DNA of 64,000 nt, from IMG/VR virus record IMGVR_UViG_3300033124_000732. One strand, written 5' to 3'. The notes beneath the pieces were generated by a model. The model had not been told where the DNA came from. It did no database searches and worked only from the letters and a program-made list of their open reading frames with translations. Positions 6,542 to 24,268 of the stretch are shown piece by piece. A program made the position numbers and the translations under genes. Source of the stretch: a virus. Lineage: Duplodnaviria > Heunggongvirae > Uroviricota > Caudoviricetes. Within the stretch, counting starts at the first letter, position 1. Every line of letters begins with the position of its first letter.

Positions 6542-6633
6542 TGGTACCCCCACCGGGAGTCGAACCCAGATGAACCAATTATCTGTTGCTTACGGGATAT
6601 AAATCCGCCGTTTTACCATTAAACTATAGGGGC
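6542..6633 (-). tRNA. atypical 92-nt tRNA-like gene, type II length, anticodon arm unresolved
   Basis: Good acceptor stem, D-arm and T-arm (CTGGGTTCGACTCCCGG) with encoded CCA. About 40 nt between the D- and T-arms; the best anticodon stem is only 3-4 bp with loop TTTATAT or a 9-nt loop ATTTATATC. Confidence 0.45.
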
Positions 6634-7193: not shown

Positions 7194-7404
7194 ATATTGA
7201 ATTTGAGAGTAGTAGCATCACTGTTATTGCTACCATTGACCCGTGTAATAAAGCCGGCCGGGAGGGTGATACGCCACTTGGGATACTTAACACACAGATT
7301 GATAACTTAGTTGTGTACGGAATCACGCCGCCCGTGCTTTACACTAGGTTGACCTTCGAAGAATCTTCCTAGCGTGTCTTTCTCTTGCTGACACTCTCAA
7401 AACT

Positions 7405-7478
7405 TGGTGCCCCACGACAGAATCGAACTGCCATCACAGGATTACAAAACCAGTGTACTACCATTGTACTAGTAGGGC
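7405..7478 (-). tRNA. tRNA-Thr(UGU) (probable)
   Basis: Clean acceptor, D- and T-arms. The anticodon arm has U-U mispairs; the best fold gives loop TTTGTAA. Confidence 0.6.
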
Positions 7479-7695: not shown

Positions 7696-7788
7696 TGGTG
7701 GAGCAACTTGGAGTCGAACCAAGAATGTTTACCACGAGGGGACGGATTTACAGTCCGCCGATGCACACGCCATAGCATCAATTGCTCC
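7696..7788 (-). tRNA. tRNA-Tyr(GUA), type II
   Basis: 93 nt. Anticodon stem CGGA/TCCG with loop CTGTAAA. Long variable region. Encoded CCA. Confidence 0.7.
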
Positions 7789-7793
7789 ATATT

Positions 7794-7867
7794 TGGTGGA
7801 CCGAGGGAGAATCGAACTCCCAACTGAGGCTTGCAAAGCCACCGTTATCCCATTTAACTACCAGCCC
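7794..7867 (-). tRNA. tRNA-Ala(UGC)
   Basis: Anticodon loop TTTGCAA. T-loop AGTTCGATTCT. Encoded CCA. Confidence 0.75.
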
Positions 7868-7873
7868 AAATTT

Positions 7874-7947
7874 TGGCGTCCAGGGAGGGACTCGAACCCC
7901 CACAAACGGTTTTGGAGACCGTTGTGCTGCCATTACACCACCCAGAC
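7874..7947 (-). tRNA. tRNA-Trp(CCA)
   Basis: Anticodon stem ACGGT/ACCGT with loop CTCCAAA. T-loop GGTTCGAGTCC. Encoded CCA. Confidence 0.85.
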
Positions 7948-7959
7948 ATTAAATACAGC

Positions 7960-9076: not shown

Positions 9077-10494
9077 ATATTTTATTTATATAGAAACACA
9101 TTCTATGCTTTGGGAATGACATTACTGTCAAGCGACCATCAACGGGTACGGAATGCGTTTGTATATAAAGTGGCGGACTGAGAATACATCCTAACCTAAT
9201 AGTGCCTCGAGCATTATTACAAACCTTGCGAGTCTGCTTTCTCTCGACTTCCACTAAGACCATATTGCTATGTATCCTAGTCCACTATCAGTATCGCCGT
9301 TTTTAAAGACAGGCAGTAGTCTTGTCATCACATGCTACTCTACACCATCTATCCCGTTGACCTTTAGAGCCATTCACTGTCGCTAAACAGTTACGAAACT
9401 TCCAGTATAAACAGATTTCACCTTGCGAGTTACGTCTGACTGTATTGCCTTGCGGCTACAGCATTAGATACTTTTCACACATGACCGAGTCAGTCTTTGC
9501 TTTTTTGTTAGATAGTGGTTATGAAGCCACAGCCTATTCCTTAACAGGGAATTGCTCTACGATGAGCTATATCAACCTACTGCGATGTGCTGACTCAGTT
9601 GCTTCATACTCTTTTGGAATACAAAATACAACACACCACGTTCCTTTTGTCTTGCGAACTACTCAGACGTCTTTTGCGATCAGTGTCGGGTCTCGGCTTT
9701 CGCGTACCTCCACCAACCACTAAAACTGCATACGAGCCCTTGGGTGCAACCCCTCGGACAAATACGCTACCCTTTCTCATACCAATTAACTGGGCTGGTT
9801 TTGTATAGAAGTCAGCACCACCTGTTACTTTCCACTGACTCCGGTTACCCTTGCGGGCCGGTAAGTCATTGTTCTTTCCTATACTCCCAGCGTCATTGTT
9901 ACAACCACCGGTCTTATCAGTGATCGGATCCTCACGGACCTGAGCAGGCTTGTTTACACGAACCATTGCTGGCGGAGTTGCGTAGGCTTACCTCCTTTGG
10001 CTGGGTCACCCCAGTTATTCTTCGTACAGCTGGGCGAACCATACTGCACAGGACAATAAACTGCCCTAAGTATCTATTGTATGACAAACGTCTTTTGTTG
10101 TCAAACTATTTTGGATAAACTGCCAAACAATCTATCCAAAATAGTTTCTATAGTCAAGCACCGAGAGCTACCCAATTTATGCGTCCTCCGCTAAGAGTGC
10201 AAAAGCCGATGGCGGTTATGTTAGGATCCGTTCCCGGCCGGTTGGACCCGAATAGTGATTGATCAGACCACGATACCCTTATCGATGCTTGACTATAAAA
10301 ACTAAAAGTTCGGATTTAAAAATCAAATCCTCCCACTGCTAACTACTGCTTCCCAATTTATCGTCCATCGGCACCCGTGGTAGGGCTTGCGATGCTCATC
10401 GGCCCTGAGTTCTAGCTCAGGTGATCCTTGGGATAGGACTGCTGGGCCTTAGCCTGCCCAGCATCAGGAAAATTAAATTCTCTGTATCGCTATG
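9077..10494. ncRNA. 1.4-kb non-coding region; candidate large structured RNA (GOLLD/ROOL-like?) next to tRNA-fMet
   Basis: No ORF above 120 aa in any frame. Higher GC than flanking genes. Numerous GC-rich hairpins (for example CCTGAG..CTCAGG, CTGGGC..GCCCAG, CCGGCCGG). Confidence 0.3.
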
Positions 10495-11314: not shown

Positions 11315-12433
11315 TCACCATGATGGAAGTTTCTTCATTTTGGCTGTAAGTTTAATACCAATAGTCTTTAACACTTCCTTACGCATCTTGTCTCTTGCTG
11401 TACGACCTTCTTTTGTCATATTGTTAGTGCCCAAGATCTCTCTACTGTACATTGTCCAACTTACTGCGTGTTTAGCAATAAGAGGTTCTTGTTCTGGCCA
11501 TCTAGCTTTTTTAATGTACATAGCATATTCCTGGCTACTACGTGGGCCCAAGGCCATCTGTGGTTCTATTAGGTCATATTTCTTGTCTAACAAGTCTTTA
11601 CAAAAGCCTTCCATACCACCAGGATAGGACTTGATCTTTTTAACGTGCTTAACGTTAATGCCTGTTTCATCCAAGACATATTTGGTCATGTCGTAGAGCC
11701 TGTCTTGCTCATGCTGGGCCTGCTTCTGCTTAAACAGATAATCTGTGTATGCTTTTATTTGATTTTTTATAATCTGGCCAAGTACAGGATGTTGTTCAAA
11801 TTTTTGTTGCTCTGCCCAATCTAAAACTCTATCTCGGGCATCATATAATGTAATTCTGTTGGCATAGTCATGTTGGATCTGATATTGATACTTGCTACCA
11901 TTGCGGTCTCTCCAAACATATAAATCACTGTGTTCAGTATAGTCTTTAAAGAAACCTGCCTGTGTAGTACACCACTTTGTGCCTGCACCCAAATGTCTTG
12001 CTGCCGCAGGTGTTTGCGGACTGGCCAACTGTCCAAAAGGACCATTGTACAATATCTTTGTGCCTTTAATAATTGGGAAGGCACCCGCTTCTTTTTTAGT
12101 TTTGGTTACTAGTACTTCTTTAATAACAGGATTAAGAACTTGATCGATGGTCTCGTCTAGTTCATAAAAACTAAATTGGTTAATGTCTCGTTTTTCCAAA
12201 CGAGGTTTTAGCTTGTCAAAGTTTTCTAATACAGTCCTAACTCTGGTTGTATCTTCAAACTTGAATTGTTTGTTTATTAGTTGTTTGGCCAACCAAGGAA
12301 CGTACTGCAAGTTCTTGGTAGGATCCATTTTCTCTAAGGCAATGACGATGTCCACCACTTCCATTTTGGTATGGCGGACAACGTCTGTAAATTTGGTTTT
12401 AAATTTTTCTACAGTTATTTCACGTTTGGACAT
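11315..12433 (-). CDS. hypothetical protein (372 aa)
   Basis: Long minus-strand ORF. No confident domain assignment. Confidence 0.55.
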   Translation of the reverse strand: MSKREITVEKFKTKFTDVVRHTKMEVVDIVIALEKMDPTKNLQYVPWLAKQLINKQFKFEDTTRVRTVLENFDKLKPRLEKRDINQFSFYELDETIDQVLNPVIKEVLVTKTKKEAGAFPIIKGTKILYNGPFGQLASPQTPAAARHLGAGTKWCTTQAGFFKDYTEHSDLYVWRDRNGSKYQYQIQHDYANRITLYDARDRVLDWAEQQKFEQHPVLGQIIKNQIKAYTDYLFKQKQAQHEQDRLYDMTKYVLDETGINVKHVKKIKSYPGGMEGFCKDLLDKKYDLIEPQMALGPRSSQEYAMYIKKARWPEQEPLIAKHAVSWTMYSREILGTNNMTKEGRTARDKMRKEVLKTIGIKLTAKMKKLPSW

Positions 12434-12908
12434 TGTATCTCCTTGTGTAAAGATTACAGTATACTATAGAACTTGTTTTGTGTCAACTAAATTAGTTGCT
12501 CTGCATCCCCCGGCGGTAATTATACCATAGTTACTTGCGTACCCAAGGCTTCCACCCGCTTCCCGACAGGGACCGCTATCGTGTTGCTAACGGCCTTTCG
12601 GTAAGAAGACTACCACCCTTGAGAGTCACCTCACTTCTTATCCTGCGGGTCACAGTATCCGCTAACCAAGCGGAACGTTAGGGGAGAGCCACGGTTGCAG
12701 GACCTAGTGCTCCGAAGAGGAAGTATCCAGGCGATGTGGCTCTCAAACTTGGTGCACCTAACAGGAATCAAACCTGTCTGCGTTTAGCTTCAAATCCAAC
12801 TCGCAATGGCAATCCAGCGCATAAACTTGGCGGTCCCAGGGGGTAACGATCCCCCTCCTCAGCAGTGACAGTGCTGTGTGCGTCCATGAACACCTTGAGA
12901 CCAAAACA
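12434..12908. ncRNA. non-coding structured region with a tRNA-like 3' module (T-arm plus ACCA at 12750-12790)
   Basis: No ORFs. On the minus strand, ACAGG-TTTGATT-CCTGT followed by TAGGTGC-A-CCA, but no complementary 5' acceptor strand within 400 nt. Many GC-rich helices upstream. Confidence 0.3.
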
Positions 12909-12983
12909 TGGAAGAGCGTAGGGGAGTCGAACCCCTCTTCTCAGGATGAAAACCTGATGTCCTAACCGATAGACGAACGCTCC
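12909..12983 (-). tRNA. tRNA-Glu(UUC)
   Basis: Acceptor stem GGAGCGT/ACGCTCT. Anticodon stem TCAGG/CCTGA with loop TTTTCAT. T-loop GGTTCGACTCC. Encoded CCA. Confidence 0.8.
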
Positions 12984-13653
12984 ATAGTTTCACTATATGA
13001 AAACACATTAGGATGTTTGATAGAGATCGCAGTTTCGAACCTGCCCTACTGTGTCGTCCACAGACTTGTCTATCAACCACATTACGGGCCAACTGGATCC
13101 GGCGTGCTTCGTCCTCTCAGAGGCTCTGAGTGATCTGCTTTCGTGTAGTCCAAGTAGAGCCTAGCCGTCACTAGGATTTAGTTCTCTACTTGGGTACCTA
13201 CCGGAGTTGGTAACCCAATGCGTTTACATATAGTGCCCAGAACTGAATCTGGGACACTATACAAAATTAAATTTTTAATGAAACCTCGCTAACTAGTCTC
13301 GATCGACTGCGTTATTAGATGGGCTGGAGCGGTCGTCTCCATTTAATGTTCTCCGCCTCGCCCTTAAGCATATTTCAGCGCGGTCTGGCCTTTAGAACAA
13401 CCCTAAAATTTTGCTTAGGCCGAGTCTCCAAACTCGCTTCGAATCCCTTGGTTACAACCCTTTTTGCATTTCTGCTGGGTTCTTACATTCGAGGATCGCC
13501 TTGCTTTCTAACTAGTCTCTAGTATAGCATCTTCTGCTTTACCGGTCAACTTGTTTTGTAAATGCCCCGCCTTGTTGCAGGGTCTTTACAAACTCGGCTG
13601 TTTCTCTAACTTGTATCTAGTATAACACCGATACATTTATTGGTCTACCGCCA

Positions 13654-13686
13654 TAAAAAAACCCGCCTACTTGGCGGGTTTTTTGG
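13654..13686. terminator. bidirectional rho-independent terminator
   Basis: AAAAAAA-CCCGCC-TACTT-GGCGGG-TTTTTT, 18 nt downstream of the porin stop codon. Confidence 0.8.
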
Positions 13687-13703
13687 TTTGTACTACTTCT
13701 GTT

Positions 13704-14585
13704 TTAGAACTGTACGACCAACCCGCCTGCTACTTGTCTAATATCACTGGCTGCTGAGGTTCCCTCAACATTGCGATACAGAACTTGTGCATAGGTCTTT
13801 TTGCTGAAAGCATACTCGGCACCTACGTTGTAGCTCTTGATGCCATTCTCAATGCGACCATAGCTGGCCTTCACTGTGATTGGACCACCAAGGTTGTGTG
13901 CCGCACCAACCAATTGACCACGGTTGGTATTGGCAGTTGCGCCTTTGTTGTCGCTGGCAATGCCATAAACTGTGGTTGCACCAAACTTGGCACGAGCAGC
14001 CACTACGTCACTGGTTTCTGCACCAGCTTCGTAACGAGCATAAGTTACCACTGCTGGACCCACTGCGGCAACCAATGAAGCAGCATAAGGATCGGTCGTA
14101 GCACCAGTGCTACGATCAAAACTAGCAGTCACATTGCCAAGGTTCACAGAAGTGAAAGCGGCATTACTGAAACGCAAACCACGCAGGTTATGCACGTCAG
14201 CGGCTGAGCTACCAATCAATGTGCCAAACGGATCATTGTTGCTGATGGCCAAGAAGTGAGTGTGAACGCTACGGCCTAGATCAACACTTCCCATTTTGTG
14301 AGCAATACCCACAGTGCTTTGACGATCGCCAAATGCAGTGGTGCTGGTTTCTGGGCTGTTGGCCTGGATATAGGTTTCGTATGTGGCACGAGCCTTCAAT
14401 CCGCCACCCAAGTCTTCGGTGGCACGAATGCCAAAGTGACTCAAATCATTTGCCATGCCTTGAACAGCAGCGGCTGTGCCAGTCTTGGTGTTGTCAAGGT
14501 AAGTGCCAACACGACCATAGATACCAACTTGTGCGCTTGCGACACCAGCAACTGCCAGGGTCAACGCAACTAGAACTTTCTTCAT
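13704..14585 (-). CDS. outer-membrane porin (Gram-negative general porin, Betaproteobacterial Omp32-like)
   Basis: Signal peptide MKKVLVALTLAVAGVASAQ. Alternating amphipathic beta-strand pattern, Gly/Ala/Thr-rich, C-terminal Phe (...LVVQF). Own terminator downstream. Confidence 0.75.
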   Translation of the reverse strand: MKKVLVALTLAVAGVASAQVGIYGRVGTYLDNTKTGTAAAVQGMANDLSHFGIRATEDLGGGLKARATYETYIQANSPETSTTAFGDRQSTVGIAHKMGSVDLGRSVHTHFLAISNNDPFGTLIGSSAADVHNLRGLRFSNAAFTSVNLGNVTASFDRSTGATTDPYAASLVAAVGPAVVTYARYEAGAETSDVVAARAKFGATTVYGIASDNKGATANTNRGQLVGAAHNLGGPITVKASYGRIENGIKSYNVGAEYAFSKKTYAQVLYRNVEGTSAASDIRQVAGGLVVQF

Positions 14586-14659: not shown

Positions 14660-15781
14660 TCAACTATTTTCGGTAAATTCTACAGGATTTTTAAAAGATT
14701 TAAACTGTTGTCCTGTAACTCTAGTGATATCAGCTAGTTCTTCTTCTAGTCGATGTTGGAATTCAGGTTGACAATATGGCTGATACTGATAATCTAATAA
14801 ATTTCTATAGCTGGTGCCCATGCGGTACAACAGGCGATTCTTTACATCGCCCAGTCTGCGATGCTGAGTGATTGAATTATCAAACAGCAACAAATCACCA
14901 TGTTGTGTTTTGTACCAATGATCGTACACATTATTTTCGGCAAACAGTTCAGTTTTGAGCTTGATCAACAATGCATCACTTTCCGGTTGGCTCATGCCCA
15001 CAAATCCTACCACTGTGTTTGGACTAAAATGCAAACCAGCAATTCCGCCGGGACTATTGATCCGCAACGGTAACTGATTGGGAGTTGGACAAAAGTTATG
15101 TTTGAACATGTGGTCTTGAACTAGATTCAATCCAGGATTGATTTTGCCTGGTTGGAATTCATGTTGGCAAACAAGCTCATCTAACTCACTGCGAAATGCT
15201 TCAGACTGATCTTGGTACCATCGAGCAGTGGTACTAAATCCGGTGCTACTGCCAATCACATGATCGATGGCCAACAAGCCCACGCCAGGAGTAAATGCTA
15301 GATGTCCAGATTCATTGCTGTGCCATAACAATTCTCCTTCAGCAAAAATTCCTAATCTACGACCTTGTTCATCTCGTTGTCCGCTAACTCGTTGAGCTTG
15401 TCCTGTACTAACTGGAGCACGAGTATAATCGCTTTCGGTAACAAATGACTGATCCTCAGGAGTTAGTGGATATACACCAGCCTTGAGATCTCTCCACATT
15501 TTATCAAATGCTTGATGTACTGGAAGATTGCTGTCCAGTTGTAGATTGTATTTTTTTAAAAATGTATAAGGACTAAGACTGTTACTTCTACCTAAAGCCA
15601 ACATCAATTCAGACCACCTATCTGGTGTAAGGTTGGTGCCTCTAAAAATTGTAACCAATGTGTCTAAGTGCAGTTTGCCATATACTGTTTGCCATTCTTC
15701 AATGCTGATATTTTCTAAATCAGCGCCGTCGACGAACACGCCGTAGTCACCTAAGCCGGGAATTTTTGTGATAGTTACCAT
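14660..15781 (-). CDS. TauD/TfdA-like Fe(II)/2-oxoglutarate dioxygenase (putative)
   Basis: 373 aa. The WHSNESGH...H pattern resembles the TauD-family HxD/E...H iron-binding site. Assignment from motif memory only. Confidence 0.45.
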   Translation of the reverse strand: MVTITKIPGLGDYGVFVDGADLENISIEEWQTVYGKLHLDTLVTIFRGTNLTPDRWSELMLALGRSNSLSPYTFLKKYNLQLDSNLPVHQAFDKMWRDLKAGVYPLTPEDQSFVTESDYTRAPVSTGQAQRVSGQRDEQGRRLGIFAEGELLWHSNESGHLAFTPGVGLLAIDHVIGSSTGFSTTARWYQDQSEAFRSELDELVCQHEFQPGKINPGLNLVQDHMFKHNFCPTPNQLPLRINSPGGIAGLHFSPNTVVGFVGMSQPESDALLIKLKTELFAENNVYDHWYKTQHGDLLLFDNSITQHRRLGDVKNRLLYRMGTSYRNLLDYQYQPYCQPEFQHRLEEELADITRVTGQQFKSFKNPVEFTENS

Positions 15782-16153
15782 ATGAGATACTTTTTAAGAT
15801 GTGGTAGCTTATTCTGTTACGAGGAAAGCTACCGAAACCCTAAGCAGTGTTTAGGCTGCTAATGCGAACTGTTCGTCGTTTGCGTTTACGTTTTTTGCTT
15901 CTACGGCCAGGAGACCCCAACCCTAACGGCTTCTGCTTTGCCGAGCTGTCCACTCTGTTACTCTTTGCCCTGTCGAAACTATGCAGGCCCATCAAAAACA
16001 TTTTGTAGTTAGAGCCGTTTTCATTCTAACCTTATGGTATTTGACGCATCTTTCGATGGTTACAAAATGTTTATGGTGGACCTGGGGGGATTCGCACCCC
16101 CGTCCAGAACACTTTTCTCTCGGCTTCATACAGCAATAACTTACAGTATATAT

Positions 16154-16342
16154 TTATTCTCGAGGTTTGTCAATAGCTTTGGAGATGATGTCATATACTT
16201 GGGAGTATGCATCTGTTATTTTGTCTAGCTGTTGTTCTGAAACCAAATCTGTATCTTCCAGACTAACCAAGTCCTGGGCCAGATTTTCCTGTAGTTTCTT
16301 TAGTTGATTAATCACATACCTATTTATAGAACAAACGGGCAA
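16154..16342 (-). CDS. possible small acidic protein (62 aa)
   Basis: ORF only. Its start lies inside the terminator hairpin at 16333-16353, so this is doubtful. Confidence 0.25.
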   Translation of the reverse strand: MPVCSINRYVINQLKKLQENLAQDLVSLEDTDLVSEQQLDKITDAYSQVYDIISKAIDKPRE

Positions 16343-16377: not shown

Positions 16378-17322
16378 TTAGGCGTTTTGAATCTTGCCAA
16401 CTAACCCAGCTGTAAAGGTATCTGCAAATTGCTCGTACACTTTGGCTGTTGCCTTGCGGAAAGTTTGCTCATCAGCGTCGCTAAATTTGATAACACGAAT
16501 GCCATCTTGTTCACAACGAGCTTTGGTTGGCTCAACTTCAGCCACAGCAACGGCACGTTCAAAACGACCAGCTTCTAATGCAGCTTCTTTCATGACTTCT
16601 TGCAGATTTTCAGGCAAGCTGGCCAAGAAGTTCTTGTTTACAATAATGTTGGTCAACAGCAAACGATGGTTGGGTTCTAAAATAGTTTCAGCAACTTCGT
16701 TTTGTTGGCAAGCATAGATACGTGGCCATGAGCTTTCGCCACCATCAATAGCACCATCTCGGATGCCTTCAGCCACACGCTCCACATCCATCACAACAGG
16801 ATCTGCGCCCAATGCACTCCATGTAGCAGCCGCCACTGGTGAATTTGACACACGAACTTTGACGCCAGCCATTTCGCTTAGGCTAGCAACTTCACGGTTC
16901 ATGGGCATGTTCATAAAGCCACCTGAGTATGTAAACGCCATACCTTTGATATTGCTGTTTTTGGTGTAGCCATCCAACAAGCTCTCGCCAATTTCACTTT
17001 CAAACACACGTGCCGCATGATTGTGATCACGGAACAAGAAAGGCAAATCAAGTGCGTCAAGGTCATTGTTGTACTTGCTGAGCACATAGGTATACATCTG
17101 ACTCATTTCAATGGCGCCTGAATCCATGATGTCCAACAGGTTGTGTTTGGTGATTGGTTCACCATGATTGTACTTGCTGGTGTACTCGCTCAGAGTCAGC
17201 ACTTCAATGTTGAATTGACCGGGTGCTCGGGCTTCTACTACCTCAGTAAATTTTTCAGCGGCACGAATAAAAATGTCGATAGGTTCATGGGCTAATACCC
17301 ATTTGATGTGGATAGGTTTCAT
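16378..17322 (-). CDS. TRAP-transporter DctP-family solute-binding protein homolog (no signal peptide)
   Basis: GVKVRVSNSPV...ALGADPVVMDVERVAEGIRDGAIDGGE matches the DctP consensus (LKIRV..SP...ALGA.PVPM...EVY.ALQ.GVVDG.EN). 314 aa. N-terminus is not hydrophobic. Confidence 0.6.
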   Translation of the reverse strand: MKPIHIKWVLAHEPIDIFIRAAEKFTEVVEARAPGQFNIEVLTLSEYTSKYNHGEPITKHNLLDIMDSGAIEMSQMYTYVLSKYNNDLDALDLPFLFRDHNHAARVFESEIGESLLDGYTKNSNIKGMAFTYSGGFMNMPMNREVASLSEMAGVKVRVSNSPVAAATWSALGADPVVMDVERVAEGIRDGAIDGGESSWPRIYACQQNEVAETILEPNHRLLLTNIIVNKNFLASLPENLQEVMKEAALEAGRFERAVAVAEVEPTKARCEQDGIRVIKFSDADEQTFRKATAKVYEQFADTFTAGLVGKIQNA

Positions 17323-19563: not shown

Positions 19564-20712
19564 CTAGGTTCCTATATCATATGCACGACTGCTCAATACT
19601 TTAAATCCTTTTTTGATGTCTGCTGGATTTCTTTTTAAAAATACTGGAGTCTGATTCCACCGGTATTCTAATCCGGTCTGCCACGTGTGTTTGGCTATGT
19701 CATTGTCTGGTAACGAAAAGAACCAACTGTCTCTGTTACTAAAAATCAAGCTAGACGGCTTGAATTGATATGGTAGAGGCTTCCAGTTTGGATAGAGTGC
19801 AGTATGTATACCATTGGAGGTTACCCAGTAAATTTTGCCGTCGATAGACACTACAGGATTTCTATCATTGTAGATTGTCGACACAAACGGTGAATTAGGC
19901 CTAAGTTGTTTCATAAATTTTTTTAACACATGGGCTTGTTTAATGACCAATGTTGGCATGTCAGGAGTCCAATAAAACATTTCATCAAACAATCCAGGGA
20001 AGCCGTCAATTTGATTATGTGTTACTGTGGCGGCATCCAAAATGTCTCTGAACACCAAACTCCATTTTCCGTTGATACCTACTATCTTGGGTTTGTCAAT
20101 TCCGTGTATAAATCCCACTTTCTTGCCAGCGTTGATCATATCCATCCAGTGAGGTTGTGTTTTTACAACCAATGTTCTTGCATGGTAATTGGGATTCACG
20201 TATTGATTTACTTTATGTACCCAATCAAATTTATTTTGTTGGTTGGCAAAGTAGTCTATAGTGAGTTGACAAATATCAATCAGTGTGTGCCGAATCCATG
20301 GTTGAGATGTTTCTTGCAAATGTTGAATCTTGGGCACTGTGAGATTGAAAATTTCACCGTTGAGATAGTCGTTGGTGTCGCCAGTAGCAGCCACGTTAAT
20401 TAACCCAGCGGCTTCATCAAGTTTGATATTATTTTCTACAAATGTATTGAGAATATTGTCGCAATCCGAGCCTCCTGAATACCATAACACCAGATAATCA
20501 TAGGTATCTCTTAGCTGTTGAGCACGTTCACGGTACAGTTCAGACAGACTTTGTGTGGATGGTCGAGCCCAATCATAAGCACTGAATATTTCATCGTTGT
20601 AGTGCCAAGTTAGTGGTTGATTGATTTTTTCTGCAACCAATGCCGCGTCAAACTTGCTATAAAATTTTAAGTTACCAACGCGATAAAATCCAAACTTATC
20701 TTTATCTTGCAT
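19564..20712 (-). CDS. PP-loop ATP pyrophosphatase-family protein, paralog B (382 aa)
   Basis: LWYSGGSDCDNIL PP-loop and YRERAQQLRDTYDY. Shares motifs with paralog A (FYWTPD, GxDKPK). Confidence 0.7.
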   Translation of the reverse strand: MQDKDKFGFYRVGNLKFYSKFDAALVAEKINQPLTWHYNDEIFSAYDWARPSTQSLSELYRERAQQLRDTYDYLVLWYSGGSDCDNILNTFVENNIKLDEAAGLINVAATGDTNDYLNGEIFNLTVPKIQHLQETSQPWIRHTLIDICQLTIDYFANQQNKFDWVHKVNQYVNPNYHARTLVVKTQPHWMDMINAGKKVGFIHGIDKPKIVGINGKWSLVFRDILDAATVTHNQIDGFPGLFDEMFYWTPDMPTLVIKQAHVLKKFMKQLRPNSPFVSTIYNDRNPVVSIDGKIYWVTSNGIHTALYPNWKPLPYQFKPSSLIFSNRDSWFFSLPDNDIAKHTWQTGLEYRWNQTPVFLKRNPADIKKGFKVLSSRAYDIGT

Positions 20713-21643
20713 CTATGTTTGCTCGATTAAGTATCTTCTTGAACTTTCGAAACTCAATAGACAAAAAAGATCGTGGAATTTGTTTTCCAATACTCTGCAA
20801 GCCTGCGTCTTTCAATTGCTCTCGAACATCAGCTCGTTGCATTAATCGACGTAACGCTTCTCGAACTTGTGTGATTTCTACAGCAGGTGCTGAAGTATTA
20901 ACTACCAACACAAACCAATTGTAAAAATCATAATCGTTATTGCCAATGTCTGTCATACTGGGTAAGTTGGGAAAATCTGAATTACGCATGCGATCCACAC
21001 TTAGCAATGGTCGAAATAATTGAGTATCAATATAAGGTCGAACACTGGTTACAAAATCTGTAACTATATCAATGTGTCGACCTTGCAGATCAACAAGTGC
21101 TGGGCCTACGCCCTTGTATGGTACATGTGTGCTTGAACACTGCAAAGTTTCCATCACAATTGACGATGAAATGTGTGTGGCAGACCCAATGCCTGCGCTG
21201 CCGTATGCGATTGGTCTTCGGCGACATTCACGTTGAAGATCTTGAATGGTGTGTATACTGCTGGCAGCATTTACAACCAACAACATGGGAATGTGTCCAA
21301 GATATTCCAATGGAACAAAATCTGTTTCTAAATTGTAATTCACAGCTGATGCATTTACAATTGATGCAGTGACTACTGCATTTGGAGCCATGAGTATTTG
21401 TAATTTGTCAGACCGTGCTACCATAGATGCCGCAAGAGTACTGCCACCGCCGGGACGATAGCTCAACACAGGATTAAAATTATAATTGGCCAATTCTTCG
21501 CGCATGGGACCGATAAGGCTTACTGCAAGTCGGTCCGCAGTACCACCGGGTGCAAAAGGAACAACAAACTCAATGTTACGTTGAGCTTGTGCTACTGTAG
21601 CTAAAAAAACTAAAGCCAGAGCAAGTAATTTACTTTTGATCAT
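20702..21643 (-). CDS. Bug/TctC-family periplasmic binding protein (2 of 3)
   Basis: VVPFAPGGTADRLAR, YGSAGIGSATHIS and VPYKGVGPALVDLQGRHID match TctC/Bug signatures. Signal peptide MIKSKLLALALVFLATVAQAQ from the ATG at 21643; the ORF-track first codon at 21670 is TTG. Confidence 0.8.
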   Translation of the reverse strand: MIKSKLLALALVFLATVAQAQRNIEFVVPFAPGGTADRLAVSLIGPMREELANYNFNPVLSYRPGGGSTLAASMVARSDKLQILMAPNAVVTASIVNASAVNYNLETDFVPLEYLGHIPMLLVVNAASSIHTIQDLQRECRRRPIAYGSAGIGSATHISSSIVMETLQCSSTHVPYKGVGPALVDLQGRHIDIVTDFVTSVRPYIDTQLFRPLLSVDRMRNSDFPNLPSMTDIGNNDYDFYNWFVLVVNTSAPAVEITQVREALRRLMQRADVREQLKDAGLQSIGKQIPRSFLSIEFRKFKKILNRANIDAR

Positions 21644-21676
21644 AGTACTCTGGTTTGTTGTTGTTTTCAAATTGAA

Positions 21677-23308: not shown

Positions 23309-24268
23309 TTATTTTGGTAACAGATGCTGATATTTTTTATACAGTCGTTCTCGACTGTCATAGTATGTGTTGTAAAACTGTCTAGCTCGAACTAAGTCAC
23401 CGCCTAATGGCACATTGCCGCGACGCACTAAAGAGGCAGCAGTGTCTGAATCAACAACTGCTTGGTGCCATGCCCAGTTGAGATATTCAAGTACATGAAC
23501 AGGTGTGCCACGAGGCGCAAACAAGCCATTGTAATTTACAGTAACAACTCCATTGTAGATTTCTGCTAATGCAGGAATGTTAGGATGTTGTGCAGAGCGT
23601 GTGCGACTGCCTACTGCTAGTACTTTGACCTTTTTAGCGTCTATCAATCCTTGTGCATCTCCAATGGCTGATAACACAAATGCTGTTTCGTTAGCAGCCA
23701 CTGATCGTAAAGTCTCTGCTTGACTTTTGTACGCCACTGGTTGAATATCTTGCACCCGCGCAGTTTCTAAGAACGCCTCAGTCATCAGTGTTTGAATGCC
23801 GCCCACTGTGGCGTAACTCAATCGTTTTTGTTGTTGAAGATACGCAACAAACTCTTGCACAGTACTAGCTGGTGTGTCTGCACCAACAATCAACGCAAGG
23901 CTGCTTTCTATGCTGGCCGACACTGGTACTAATTGATCTCTTGATGGTGCATTTGGTAACCCTTGAATGGCGTTCACCATGGCTGGACCAGTTTCAAATT
24001 GCCCTAGGGTCAGCCCATTGGGTTCTGATTGCGTCAACGCCTGAGTACCAATGGTGCCACTGGCACCTGGACGATTGGATACTATGATGTTTACCCCAGT
24101 GATTTGTTCCACAGTCTTGGCCAATTGCCTTGCGGTAATATCGCTGTTGCCTCCAGGGCCGTACGGCACAATAACAGTGATGGTCTTGCCTGTCAGTTCA
24201 GCAGGAATGTCTCGTGCGTGTGTGGTCACGCACAGTGATAATAGCAGTAGTGTTAGTAGTTTCTTCAT
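23309..24268 (-). CDS. Bug/TctC-family periplasmic binding protein (3 of 3)
   Basis: Signal peptide MKKLLTLLLLSLCVTTHA. IVPYGPGGNSDITAR motif. 319 aa. Confidence 0.75.
   Translation of the reverse strand: MKKLLTLLLLSLCVTTHARDIPAELTGKTITVIVPYGPGGNSDITARQLAKTVEQITGVNIIVSNRPGASGTIGTQALTQSEPNGLTLGQFETGPAMVNAIQGLPNAPSRDQLVPVSASIESSLALIVGADTPASTVQEFVAYLQQQKRLSYATVGGIQTLMTEAFLETARVQDIQPVAYKSQAETLRSVAANETAFVLSAIGDAQGLIDAKKVKVLAVGSRTRSAQHPNIPALAEIYNGVVTVNYNGLFAPRGTPVHVLEYLNWAWHQAVVDSDTAASLVRRGNVPLGGDLVRARQFYNTYYDSRERLYKKYQHLLPK

Follow-up and report, generated by a model that had tools for sequence, protein, structure and literature searches.

A minus-strand mosaic of small RNA genes in the transfer RNA island of a large phage-like genome

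What does a phage keep in a gap of 1.27 kilobases (kb) between two protein genes of its transfer RNA (tRNA) island? We addressed this question for positions 12434-13703 of a Caudoviricetes record (IMGVR_UViG_3300033124_000732), of which a stretch of 64,000 nucleotides (nt), referred to here as the window, was analysed. An earlier note on this DNA had described the gap as non-coding, with an embedded tRNA-Glu, a free-standing tRNA-like 3' module and repeated motifs, and had proposed that it encodes a large non-coding RNA or one half of an RNA class shared with another region at 9077-10494. We find that 12434-13703 is a minus-strand, non-coding mosaic of separate small RNA genes, not one large RNA, and that it is part of a longer RNA island on the minus strand of the phage. 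Its contents are two ordinary tRNAs, three promoters, an insert specific to this genome and four conserved families of RNA, designated TL, E1, E2 and E3, that are absent from Rfam 15. With respect to function, it is likely that the region works as a multi-gene RNA transcription unit rather than as a single RNA.

Separate modules between two protein genes

The stretch is flanked by two minus-strand genes, a porin gene at 13704-14585 and a gene at 11315-12433 whose product of 372 amino acids (aa) has no family assigned. No credible open reading frame (ORF) lies between them, as the earlier note had stated; the longest (77 aa) overlaps with the tRNAs, and a 67-aa plus-strand ORF gave no Pfam or PHROG signal. 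Protein coding was rejected on these grounds. In reading order, the region consists of a terminator, the promoters P1 and P2, a 188-nt block, E3, tRNA-Glu, tRNA-Asp, TL, E1, E2 and a third promoter, P3. The six RNA genes, with stem lengths in base pairs (bp), are:

12991-13235, minus strand: E3, a 245-nt structured RNA with a 22-bp closing stem (13214-13235 with 12991-13012), inverted repeat I1
12909-12983, minus strand: tRNA-Glu (UUC), CCA encoded, found by ARAGORN and Rfam (54.1 bits)
12828-12902, minus strand: tRNA-Asp (GUC), CCA encoded, with an unusual T-loop (AUCGUUA), found by ARAGORN and identical (100%) in related locus L011
12750-12820, minus strand: TL, a 71-nt tRNA-like gene of three covarying helices, starting after tRNA-Asp
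12684-12744, minus strand: E1, a 61-nt hairpin RNA that folds better than shuffles (z-score -2.6)
12496-12680, minus strand: E2, a 185-nt RNA with eight nested helices and two candidate pseudoknots (model R1, covariation)

Positions 12300-13800 were scanned with cmscan against all 4227 Rfam 15 families (E<=10). This returned tRNA-Glu, confirming the earlier assignment, and otherwise only weak leader or terminator look-alikes, at the terminator hairpin 13656-13684; E1, E2, E3 and TL were unmatched. At the gathering threshold and at E<=10 alike, no module matched a transfer-messenger RNA (tmRNA), GOLLD, ROOL, intron, RNase P, SRP, 6S, T-box, riboswitch or ribozyme family, so that the models named beforehand as a check (tmRNA, GOLLD, ROOL, group I and group II introns) all came back empty. 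The tRNA-Asp, overlooked in the earlier note, was missed in two larger Rfam searches and scored 36.2 bits (threshold 29) in a 171-nt search with laxer filters. Its T-loop replaces UUCGAAU in several phage tRNAs, with positions 54 and 58 swapped to A and U; besides this tRNA-Asp, it is found in the window's tRNA-Thr at 2365-2438 and in L027, L039, L041, L073 and L109.

The blocks of the region are also independent of one another. The minus strand was aligned to its closest relative, L011, and compared by BLAST with 135 related loci. By this measure, 13703-13504 is conserved in ~21 loci, 13303-12989 in 7-20, both tRNAs in 40-58, and the E1 block 12745-12685 in ~33; the E2 block 12680-12496 is conserved in ~100 loci of a set that was itself gathered with an E2 pattern. 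The order of the blocks differs among relatives, where they stand next to other tRNAs. For example, in L003 and L007 the E1 block is flanked by tRNA-Leu and tRNA-Ser, and the E2 block, five tRNAs downstream of it, follows tRNA-Glu. In L005 and L006, E2 likewise comes after tRNA-Glu, and E1 was not found by sequence search. That the modules occur apart, reordered and beside other tRNAs in relatives speaks against the large non-coding RNA proposed earlier.

Each of the four families has recurrent homologues with compensatory substitutions beyond those of the controls, and E1, E2, E3 and TL are structured RNA families in this sense. They recur widely in freshwater phage contigs.

The tRNA-like gene TL

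The tRNA-like module of the earlier note corresponds to a T-arm/acceptor/CCA string, ACAGGTTTGATTCCTGTTAGGTGCACCA, which is present at 12750-12777 on the minus strand, once in the window with 0 expected. The note had held that this module stands free, with no matching 5' acceptor strand, in the manner of a tmRNA-like 3' end or a permuted or split tRNA. The string does belong to a non-canonical tRNA-like RNA, but it is the 3' part of TL and not an element on its own: UAGGUGC has its partner in GCGCUGG (12820-12814), and relatives show covariation between the two. With its three helices, the 71-nt TL is complete in itself, and it is neither split or permuted nor reduced to the 3' part of a tRNA. 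A second permuted tmRNA or a split tRNA was rejected given that TL has its own 5' acceptor strand; the only tmRNA call in the window is at 15760-16166, and TL has no tag frame and no tmRNA match.

The gene follows tRNA-Asp via the spacer AGUUUAU and is followed in turn by AGUUUGA and E1. Its acceptor stem comprises seven positions with a conserved 6:67 mismatch, and an 8-nt linker, 8-10 nt and unpaired across the family, stands where a D-arm would be expected. The central hairpin is long (4+4 bp, an internal loop and an 8-nt loop, AUUUGAAG), and the T-arm, ACAGG-UUUGAUU-CCUGU, leads to a discriminator A and an encoded CCA. TL thus shares with canonical tRNAs the acceptor stem, discriminator and CCA, and has neither a D-arm nor an anticodon arm of 5 bp with a 7-nt loop. 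A further departure is found in the T-loop UUUGAUU, which has U where C56 is expected.

In terms of recurrence, a T-arm/acceptor pattern located TL in 13 IMG/VR contigs, and a central-hairpin pattern matched 94 metagenome stretches, of which ~50 are distinct true copies by eye and the rest chance matches. An exact 21-mer search had given no match elsewhere, and BLAST showed a gap at TL against related loci; the view that TL is unique and decayed was nonetheless rejected, as one base differed from the 21-mer query and the looser patterns found the 13 viral and many metagenome copies. In several contigs, TL adjoins a tRNA-Asp-like 3' end.

Across 26 distinct sequences, in all of which the full length, the 5' strand and CCA are retained, the three-helix model pairs 94.4% of cells, compared with ~40% in slid controls. 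Compensatory change is seen at 7 of 20 pairs (acceptor 2, central hairpin 2, T-arm 3). None of 500 shuffles was as good on four of five measures, and 5 of 500 reached the count of further pair types. Five of the seven acceptor positions pair in nearly all sequences, and 3:70 pairs in 25 of 26; compensatory changes in this stem fall at 2:71 and 3:70, and the discriminator is A or G in the family. Such full-length retention with covariation argues against the 3' fragment of a duplicated tRNA, which had been raised as an alternative.

Position 3:70 is G:U in 20 of the 26 sequences, including the window copy, C-G in two, U-A in two, G-C in one and unpaired in one, and G3:U70 is combined with A73 in 20. 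The G3:U70 pair is an alanine identity element that is also used by tmRNA. As a trait of the TL family, alanine identity was rejected in view of the Watson-Crick replacements in divergent members.

Tools for tRNA detection do not recognize the window copy. ARAGORN made no call in its standard, intron and pseudogene modes, and a 171-nt search gave no Rfam tRNA match at E<=10. In mitochondrial mode, ARAGORN called three TL relatives as D-armless 'mtRNA-Ser(tga)' and left the window copy uncalled. To judge from its sequence, TL looks like a tRNA mimic and is unlikely to act in decoding. The closest parallels are the tRNA-like domain of tmRNA and the D-armless mitochondrial tRNAs. With the former, TL has in common the acceptor stem, T-arm, discriminator and CCA, the absence of a D-stem and, in most copies, G3:U70 with A73. 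Unlike tmRNA, viral 3' tRNA-like structures and the tRNA-like domains of bacterial Y-RNAs, it stands free and lacks an mRNA-like part, a tag frame and pseudoknots; it matches neither the tmRNA nor the tRNA-like Rfam models, its G3:U70 is not invariant, and the phage has its own permuted tmRNA elsewhere. With D-armless mitochondrial tRNAs, it shares three helices and a short linker in place of the D-arm, whereas it comes from a bacterial virus, has a 4+4-bp central hairpin with an internal loop and an 8-nt loop, and encodes its CCA.

One reading, which we regard as possible though not probable, is that TL is a working mimic, matured by RNase P and possibly aminoacylated, that, in the manner of a decoy or sponge, diverts host factors which bind tRNA, such as anticodon nucleases, or that marks the RNA downstream for processing. 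This would fit the upkeep by covariation of the acceptor stem, T-arm, discriminator and CCA with no D-arm, the position of TL in tRNA slots, where it follows a tRNA-Asp-like end and precedes tRNAs or other modules, the mitochondrial-mode calls, and the 20 sequences with G3:U70 and A73. It fits less well with the exchange of G3:U70 for other pairs in divergent members, with a central stem and loop that do not make a normal anticodon arm, and with the U at position 56.

The slot taken by TL is filled differently in L011, where 7769-7958 holds two 90-nt tRNA-like units with an acceptor stem, a T-arm and odd bodies; one of them scores 20 bits on the tRNA model. In the same locus, a 200-nt insert separates tRNA-Glu from tRNA-Asp (L011:7485-7685).

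The hairpin E1, the multi-helix RNA E2 and the E3 cassettes

A strict two-part pattern found E1 in 62 IMG/VR stretches. Among 21 distinct copies, compensatory change affects 11 of 18 predicted pairs. The basal stem GAGAGCCAC/GUGGCUCUC covaries and the internal loops are invariant, and the apical loop is UUCG, GCAA or, on a longer stem, GUAA. In 15 of the 21 copies, E1 starts 4-8 nt after a tRNA. E1 and E2 are adjacent in the window and in L011, L029, L123 and L125.

For E2, a 20-nt core pattern occurs in at least 120 IMG/VR stretches, and ~100 of those listed are distinct true copies of 173-280 nt. The structure was derived from an alignment (A1) of 38 non-redundant copies, in which pairing holds in 97.1% of cells, as against 81.2% in shuffles and ~40% with slid partners. 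Compensatory change was seen at 26 of 43 tested pairs, and none of 500 shuffles reached any of five measures. The long-range helix GNNCCU/RGGNNY is very clear, appearing as GUUCCU/AGGAAC, GACCCU/GGGGUC and GAACCU/AGGUUC. About 50 positions are invariant, many of them unpaired, including GAUGAGAAGU, GUCGGGAAGC, the loop URGCAAU and the tail GCAGAGCA, and both candidate pseudoknots are centred on an invariant GGGUGGU, which would pair through GGGU with ACCC of L2 and through GGU with ACC of L4. The number of unpaired bases that do not vary suggests that the core serves binding or catalysis. The E2 UGGU, a potential binder of tRNA 3' ends, is itself engaged in the candidate pseudoknots.

The covariance model R1 gave 97 matches in 100 IMG/VR loci. 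Its single match in the window scored 194.7 bits (E 3.6e-59), with no copy elsewhere in the window, the GOLLD region 9077-10494 included. That region is explained by a GOLLD RNA at 9175-9639 on the minus strand (203.8 bits, with a full-length 3' domain, overlapping an Rfam tRNA match at 9506-9576), and the notion that the two regions are halves of one RNA class is not borne out. In 596 gigabases of cellular genomes, the core pattern, which is too short for that database, matched at least 120 stretches; the flanking motifs GGGYGGT upstream and ACCGCCG downstream were in none of the cellular-genome matches listed, which neither shows nor excludes E2 there. Likenesses noted by eye to 5S rRNA-like strings, to a T-box-like GGGUGGUA, to an SRP-like GGAAGCA and to ZTP-, cobalamin- or twister-like GC-rich strings were dropped, as none was backed by a model score and the helices are arranged differently.

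The genomic context of E2 was examined in 89 distinct copies. In 51, E2 starts within 8 nt of the 3' end of a same-strand tRNA; in 29, a tRNA follows within 15 nt. The upstream tRNA belongs to eight species and the downstream tRNA to seven. Eight copies have a gap of ~60-90 nt to the upstream tRNA, which is roughly the size of E1. Besides tRNAs, E2 can have another RNA module or an unrelated gene downstream. E2 therefore has no consistent downstream gene set of the kind that marks a riboswitch or cis-regulatory leader.

E3 has a multi-helix interior, or cargo, within its closing stem. This cargo was found in 11 IMG/VR stretches, and 20 of 74 predicted pairs show compensatory change, in only seven sequences. 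A second T-arm-like hairpin proposed earlier, GCAG-GTTCGAAA-CTGC (GCAG-GUUCGAAA-CUGC as RNA), at ~13030-13045, is an inner hairpin of E3. The hairpin itself holds up; its assignment as a T-arm does not, as the loop is not conserved in relatives, where it reads GUUCGAAA, A--AAAAA, GUUUAAAA or GAUCAAAA.

In L011 and L029, the E3 stem is retained and the cargo is different. E3-type closing stems (CAUAUUGAAGCACAUU ... GUGUGUUUCAAUAUG) also surround unrelated interiors of ~45-215 nt, often directly after E2 (L003:5848-5950, L018, L021, L041, L062, L016 and others). The closing stem looks like a reusable cassette frame.

Expression from tRNA slots, rival readings and known relatives

How might these genes be expressed? 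The upstream end and the downstream end of the region carry the following elements:

13656-13684, minus strand: two-way intrinsic terminator hairpin, AAAAAACCCGCC-loop-GGCGGGTTTTTT, which ends the upstream porin gene; inverted repeat I5, kept in relatives
13619-13647, minus strand: promoter P1, sigma-70 type, TAGACC-17-TATACT (9/12 matches, TG before the -10)
13555-13592, minus strand: hairpin between P1 and P2 with 16-nt arms; inverted repeat I3, the arms co-varying in relatives by eye
13521-13549, minus strand: promoter P2, TTGACC-17-TATACT (10/12 matches, TG), followed by a conserved transcript start, GAGACUAGUUAG
13311-13503, minus strand: genome-specific leader block of ~188 nt, with no L011 counterpart and found in 0 of 135 loci
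13228-13262, minus strand: hairpin H0, just upstream of E3, its inner stem co-varying in relatives
12458-12486, minus strand: promoter P3, TTGACA-17-TATACT (11/12 matches), for the 372-aa gene

A consensus scan found six promoter-like sites where 1.9 +/- 1.5 were expected, and the best three are all on the minus strand. In 12 related loci, the hexamers of P1 and P2 and the transcript start AGAGACUAGUUAG are kept and the spacers are variable. The repeated motifs that the earlier note had remarked on do exist, as 12-mers, and prove to be promoter parts, with ACAAAACAAGTTGAC flanking the -35 and GAGACTAGTTAG beginning the transcript; P2 accounts for the direct repeats D1 and D2. P3 is kept upstream of the 372-aa gene in L001, L003 and L007, and in the window a ribosome-binding site (RBS), AAGGAG, lies 6 nt ahead of the ATG of this gene at 12433. 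A pattern scan listed no minus-strand terminator inside the unit. The 188-nt block has no detectable structure (fold z-score -1.1) and no coding signal, the 67-aa plus-strand ORF mentioned above being the one it contains. The inner stem of H0 appears in relatives as CCCAGA/UCUGGG, CUCGGA/UCCGGG and CUUGAU/AUCAAG. Its 3' arm and the 5' arm of the E3 closing stem have CACUAUA in common, and the two pairings are therefore mutually exclusive.

Within the array, TL, E1 and E2 are spaced as tRNAs are. They lie on the same strand and start 0-8 nt after a CCA, that is, a few bases beyond an encoded CCA and an A/U-rich spacer (AGUUU...). All 30 window tRNAs checked have the same arrangement of an encoded CCA with a short A/U-rich spacer after it, and in other phages the next tRNA often comes 3-10 nt after TL, E1 or E2.

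Taken together, this layout is consistent with a model in which P1 and P2, just past the porin terminator, would drive one transcript of six RNA genes carrying E3, tRNA-Glu, tRNA-Asp, TL, E1 and E2 in that order, after which P3 would start the next protein gene. TL, E1 and E2 would then occupy tRNA slots in a poly-RNA transcript, and the nucleases that mature tRNAs would free each of these passengers from it as a stable small RNA of its own. Candidate nucleases are RNase P at the downstream 5' ends and RNase E or exonucleases in the spacers; RNase III might act at the E3 stem as an extra double-strand processing site. The released RNAs would presumably act in trans, and as to their function we can only guess at tRNA or translation metabolism or host defence.

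Several points weigh against a multi-gene unit of this type. We infer co-transcription and processing from the layout alone, and the promoter scan consists of consensus matching only. There are 20 E2 copies among the 89 with no nearby upstream tRNA, some of which appear with a -10-like CATACT of their own, and tRNA punctuation is therefore not obligatory. The loci for E2 context were gathered with the E2 pattern, and the co-occurrence counts are biased accordingly. Helix P7 of E2 (GGUGG/CCGCC) and the pseudoknots are supported mainly by conservation, with few compensations (L033, L006, L106). Finally, E1 and E2 could work as a single RNA in some phages, given their recurrent adjacency.

The multi-gene reading can be extended to a joint one, in which E2 would be a new functional RNA core (a ribozyme or a ligand- or protein-binding RNA) that large freshwater phages keep within their tRNA arrays, TL a D-armless tRNA mimic encoded by the virus, put to use as a decoy or processing signal once matured and possibly charged like a tRNA, and E1 and the E3-type cassettes the remainder of an as yet undescribed set of array-passenger RNAs made with the help of the tRNA-processing machinery; we consider this full combination unlikely. 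Somewhat less likely again is that E2 is a self-cleaving or catalytic RNA that helps to cut the tRNA-array transcript beside the upstream CCA. In the 51 copies, its conserved part begins 0-5 nt after CCA, which would suit such a role, as would a compact-looking fold with candidate pseudoknots and its many invariant positions. However, E2 has no likeness to known self-cleaving classes in Rfam, the bases between CCA and the conserved ACGUU vary, and some copies have no upstream tRNA at all.

A single giant, ornate RNA of the GOLLD or ROOL type, spanning all 1.27 kb with the tRNAs embedded and related to, or the other half of, 9077-10494, is in our view very improbable. The variable part of GOLLD can hold tRNAs (PMC12286853), the GOLLD of the window does overlap a tRNA, the whole region has no ORFs, and E2 comes directly after E1 in several loci. 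Against this, no GOLLD, ROOL or other large RNA matched in Rfam (E<=10), relatives carry the modules separately and in different orders, the 188-nt block and other modules may be present or absent with their neighbours unaffected, the E2 model has no match in 9077-10494, and two protein genes separate the two regions.

The two least credible readings can be set aside briefly. E2, with or without E1, might be a cis-acting leader (riboswitch or attenuator) of the 372-aa gene, which it directly precedes in the window, L001, L003 and L007 with many invariant unpaired bases, as in ligand-binding cores, but the near-consensus P3 intervenes, E2 elsewhere precedes tRNAs (the 29 copies above), other RNA modules or unrelated genes, and no conserved terminator or RBS-sequestering expression platform follows the GCAGAGCA tail. 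Similarly, decaying filler made of dead tRNA remnants and a pseudogenised protein gene, with only two live tRNAs and the CCA module as a duplicated-tRNA 3' fragment, might be read from a window TL that folds no better than shuffles (z-score -0.26) and fails ARAGORN and the Rfam tRNA model, from the two other non-canonical units in the same place in L011, and from a unique, unstructured 188-nt block, but this reading is largely refuted by the covariation in TL, E1, E2 and E3, each conserved in many contigs, and by the 26 complete TL sequences.

With respect to known systems, GOLLD and ROOL are structured RNAs of phages and prophages, frequently located near tRNA islands (PMC12286853), and RNAs C and D are small RNAs from the T4 tRNA region with roles unknown (PMC3014915). 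E1, E2, E3 and TL belong to this already known kind, the structured RNAs associated with phage tRNA islands. Relative to GOLLD and ROOL (RF02032, RF03087), they share the setting, the GOLLD of the window lying 3 kb away in the same island, and have no sequence or structure match; those RNAs measure ~600-800 nt or more, whereas E2 (185-270 nt), E3 (245 nt) and E1 (61 nt) are far smaller, separate modules. T4 RNAs C and D resemble TL, E1 and E2, by genomic placement alone, as non-tRNA small RNAs in a phage tRNA cluster; among isolated phages there is no close sequence relative of the region, blastn of its whole length against 50,697 records having matched tRNAs only.

A likeness in layout only can be drawn to tRNA punctuation and processing stems, as in rRNA operons and T7 RNase III sites, given that non-tRNA RNAs abut tRNAs or the mimic here and that E3 is bracketed by a stem. 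Where neighbouring RNAs are released by RNase III or by enzymes that process tRNAs, the layout is of this kind. As for prior descriptions of E1, E2, E3 and TL, they are absent from Rfam 15 and a limited literature search gave general precedents only, and an earlier description is possible.

The arrays hold other content as well. A module starting AGUUUUGAGAGUGUCAGCAAG lies at ~7390-7404, after tRNA-Thr (7405-7478), in the window and also follows TL in L259, L265, L292, L296 and L328; it is probably a further passenger RNA family. Another recurrent module ends ...GGGAAGCACCC within a stem UUUGUUUAGUG/CACUAAACAAA (L002:5284-5430, L044, L111, L123) and is found after tRNA-Glu or after E2-linked cassettes. 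Among the tRNAs, tRNA-Ile(UAU) at 6542-6633 (92 nt) and tRNA-Tyr at 7696-7788 (93 nt) are unusually long for these species, and ARAGORN reports a tRNA with a four-base anticodon (caag) in the array of a related phage (L029:9189-9270).

The wider setting is an RNA island on the minus strand of the window, with 30 tRNA genes, the GOLLD RNA and a permuted tmRNA (ARAGORN, Rfam). The tmRNA (15760-16166, minus strand) is of the two-piece type, has the tag ANDEQFALAA and scores on the beta-proteobacterial tmRNA model. Proteins encoded nearby include a Gram-negative porin, TauD, DctP and TctC solute-binding proteins, radical-SAM enzymes, SAM synthetase and a family-B DNA polymerase. The tmRNA type together with the porin and TctC/DctP genes suggests a betaproteobacterial host. 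The genes at 13704-14585, 16378-17322, 20702-21670 and 23309-24268, for the porin and three periplasmic solute-binding proteins (one DctP, two TctC), look like auxiliary genes of host type. The nearest relatives are uncultivated IMG/VR contigs, many of them >200 kb, and the genome is a large, phage-like one from fresh water.

Large phages are known for their tRNA islands, for tmRNAs and for a small number of giant RNAs, GOLLD and ROOL among them, and what else lies between their tRNAs has hardly been charted. Here, a single 1.27-kb gap holds four covariation-supported RNA families with no Rfam 15 match. E1, E2, E3 and TL provide practical annotation models for the seemingly empty gaps in jumbo-phage tRNA regions, and at 61-245 nt they are short targets for structural and functional work on the takeover of translation or the countering of defence. 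If they are released by tRNA-processing enzymes, these phages would be using their tRNA arrays as a general platform for small-RNA expression.

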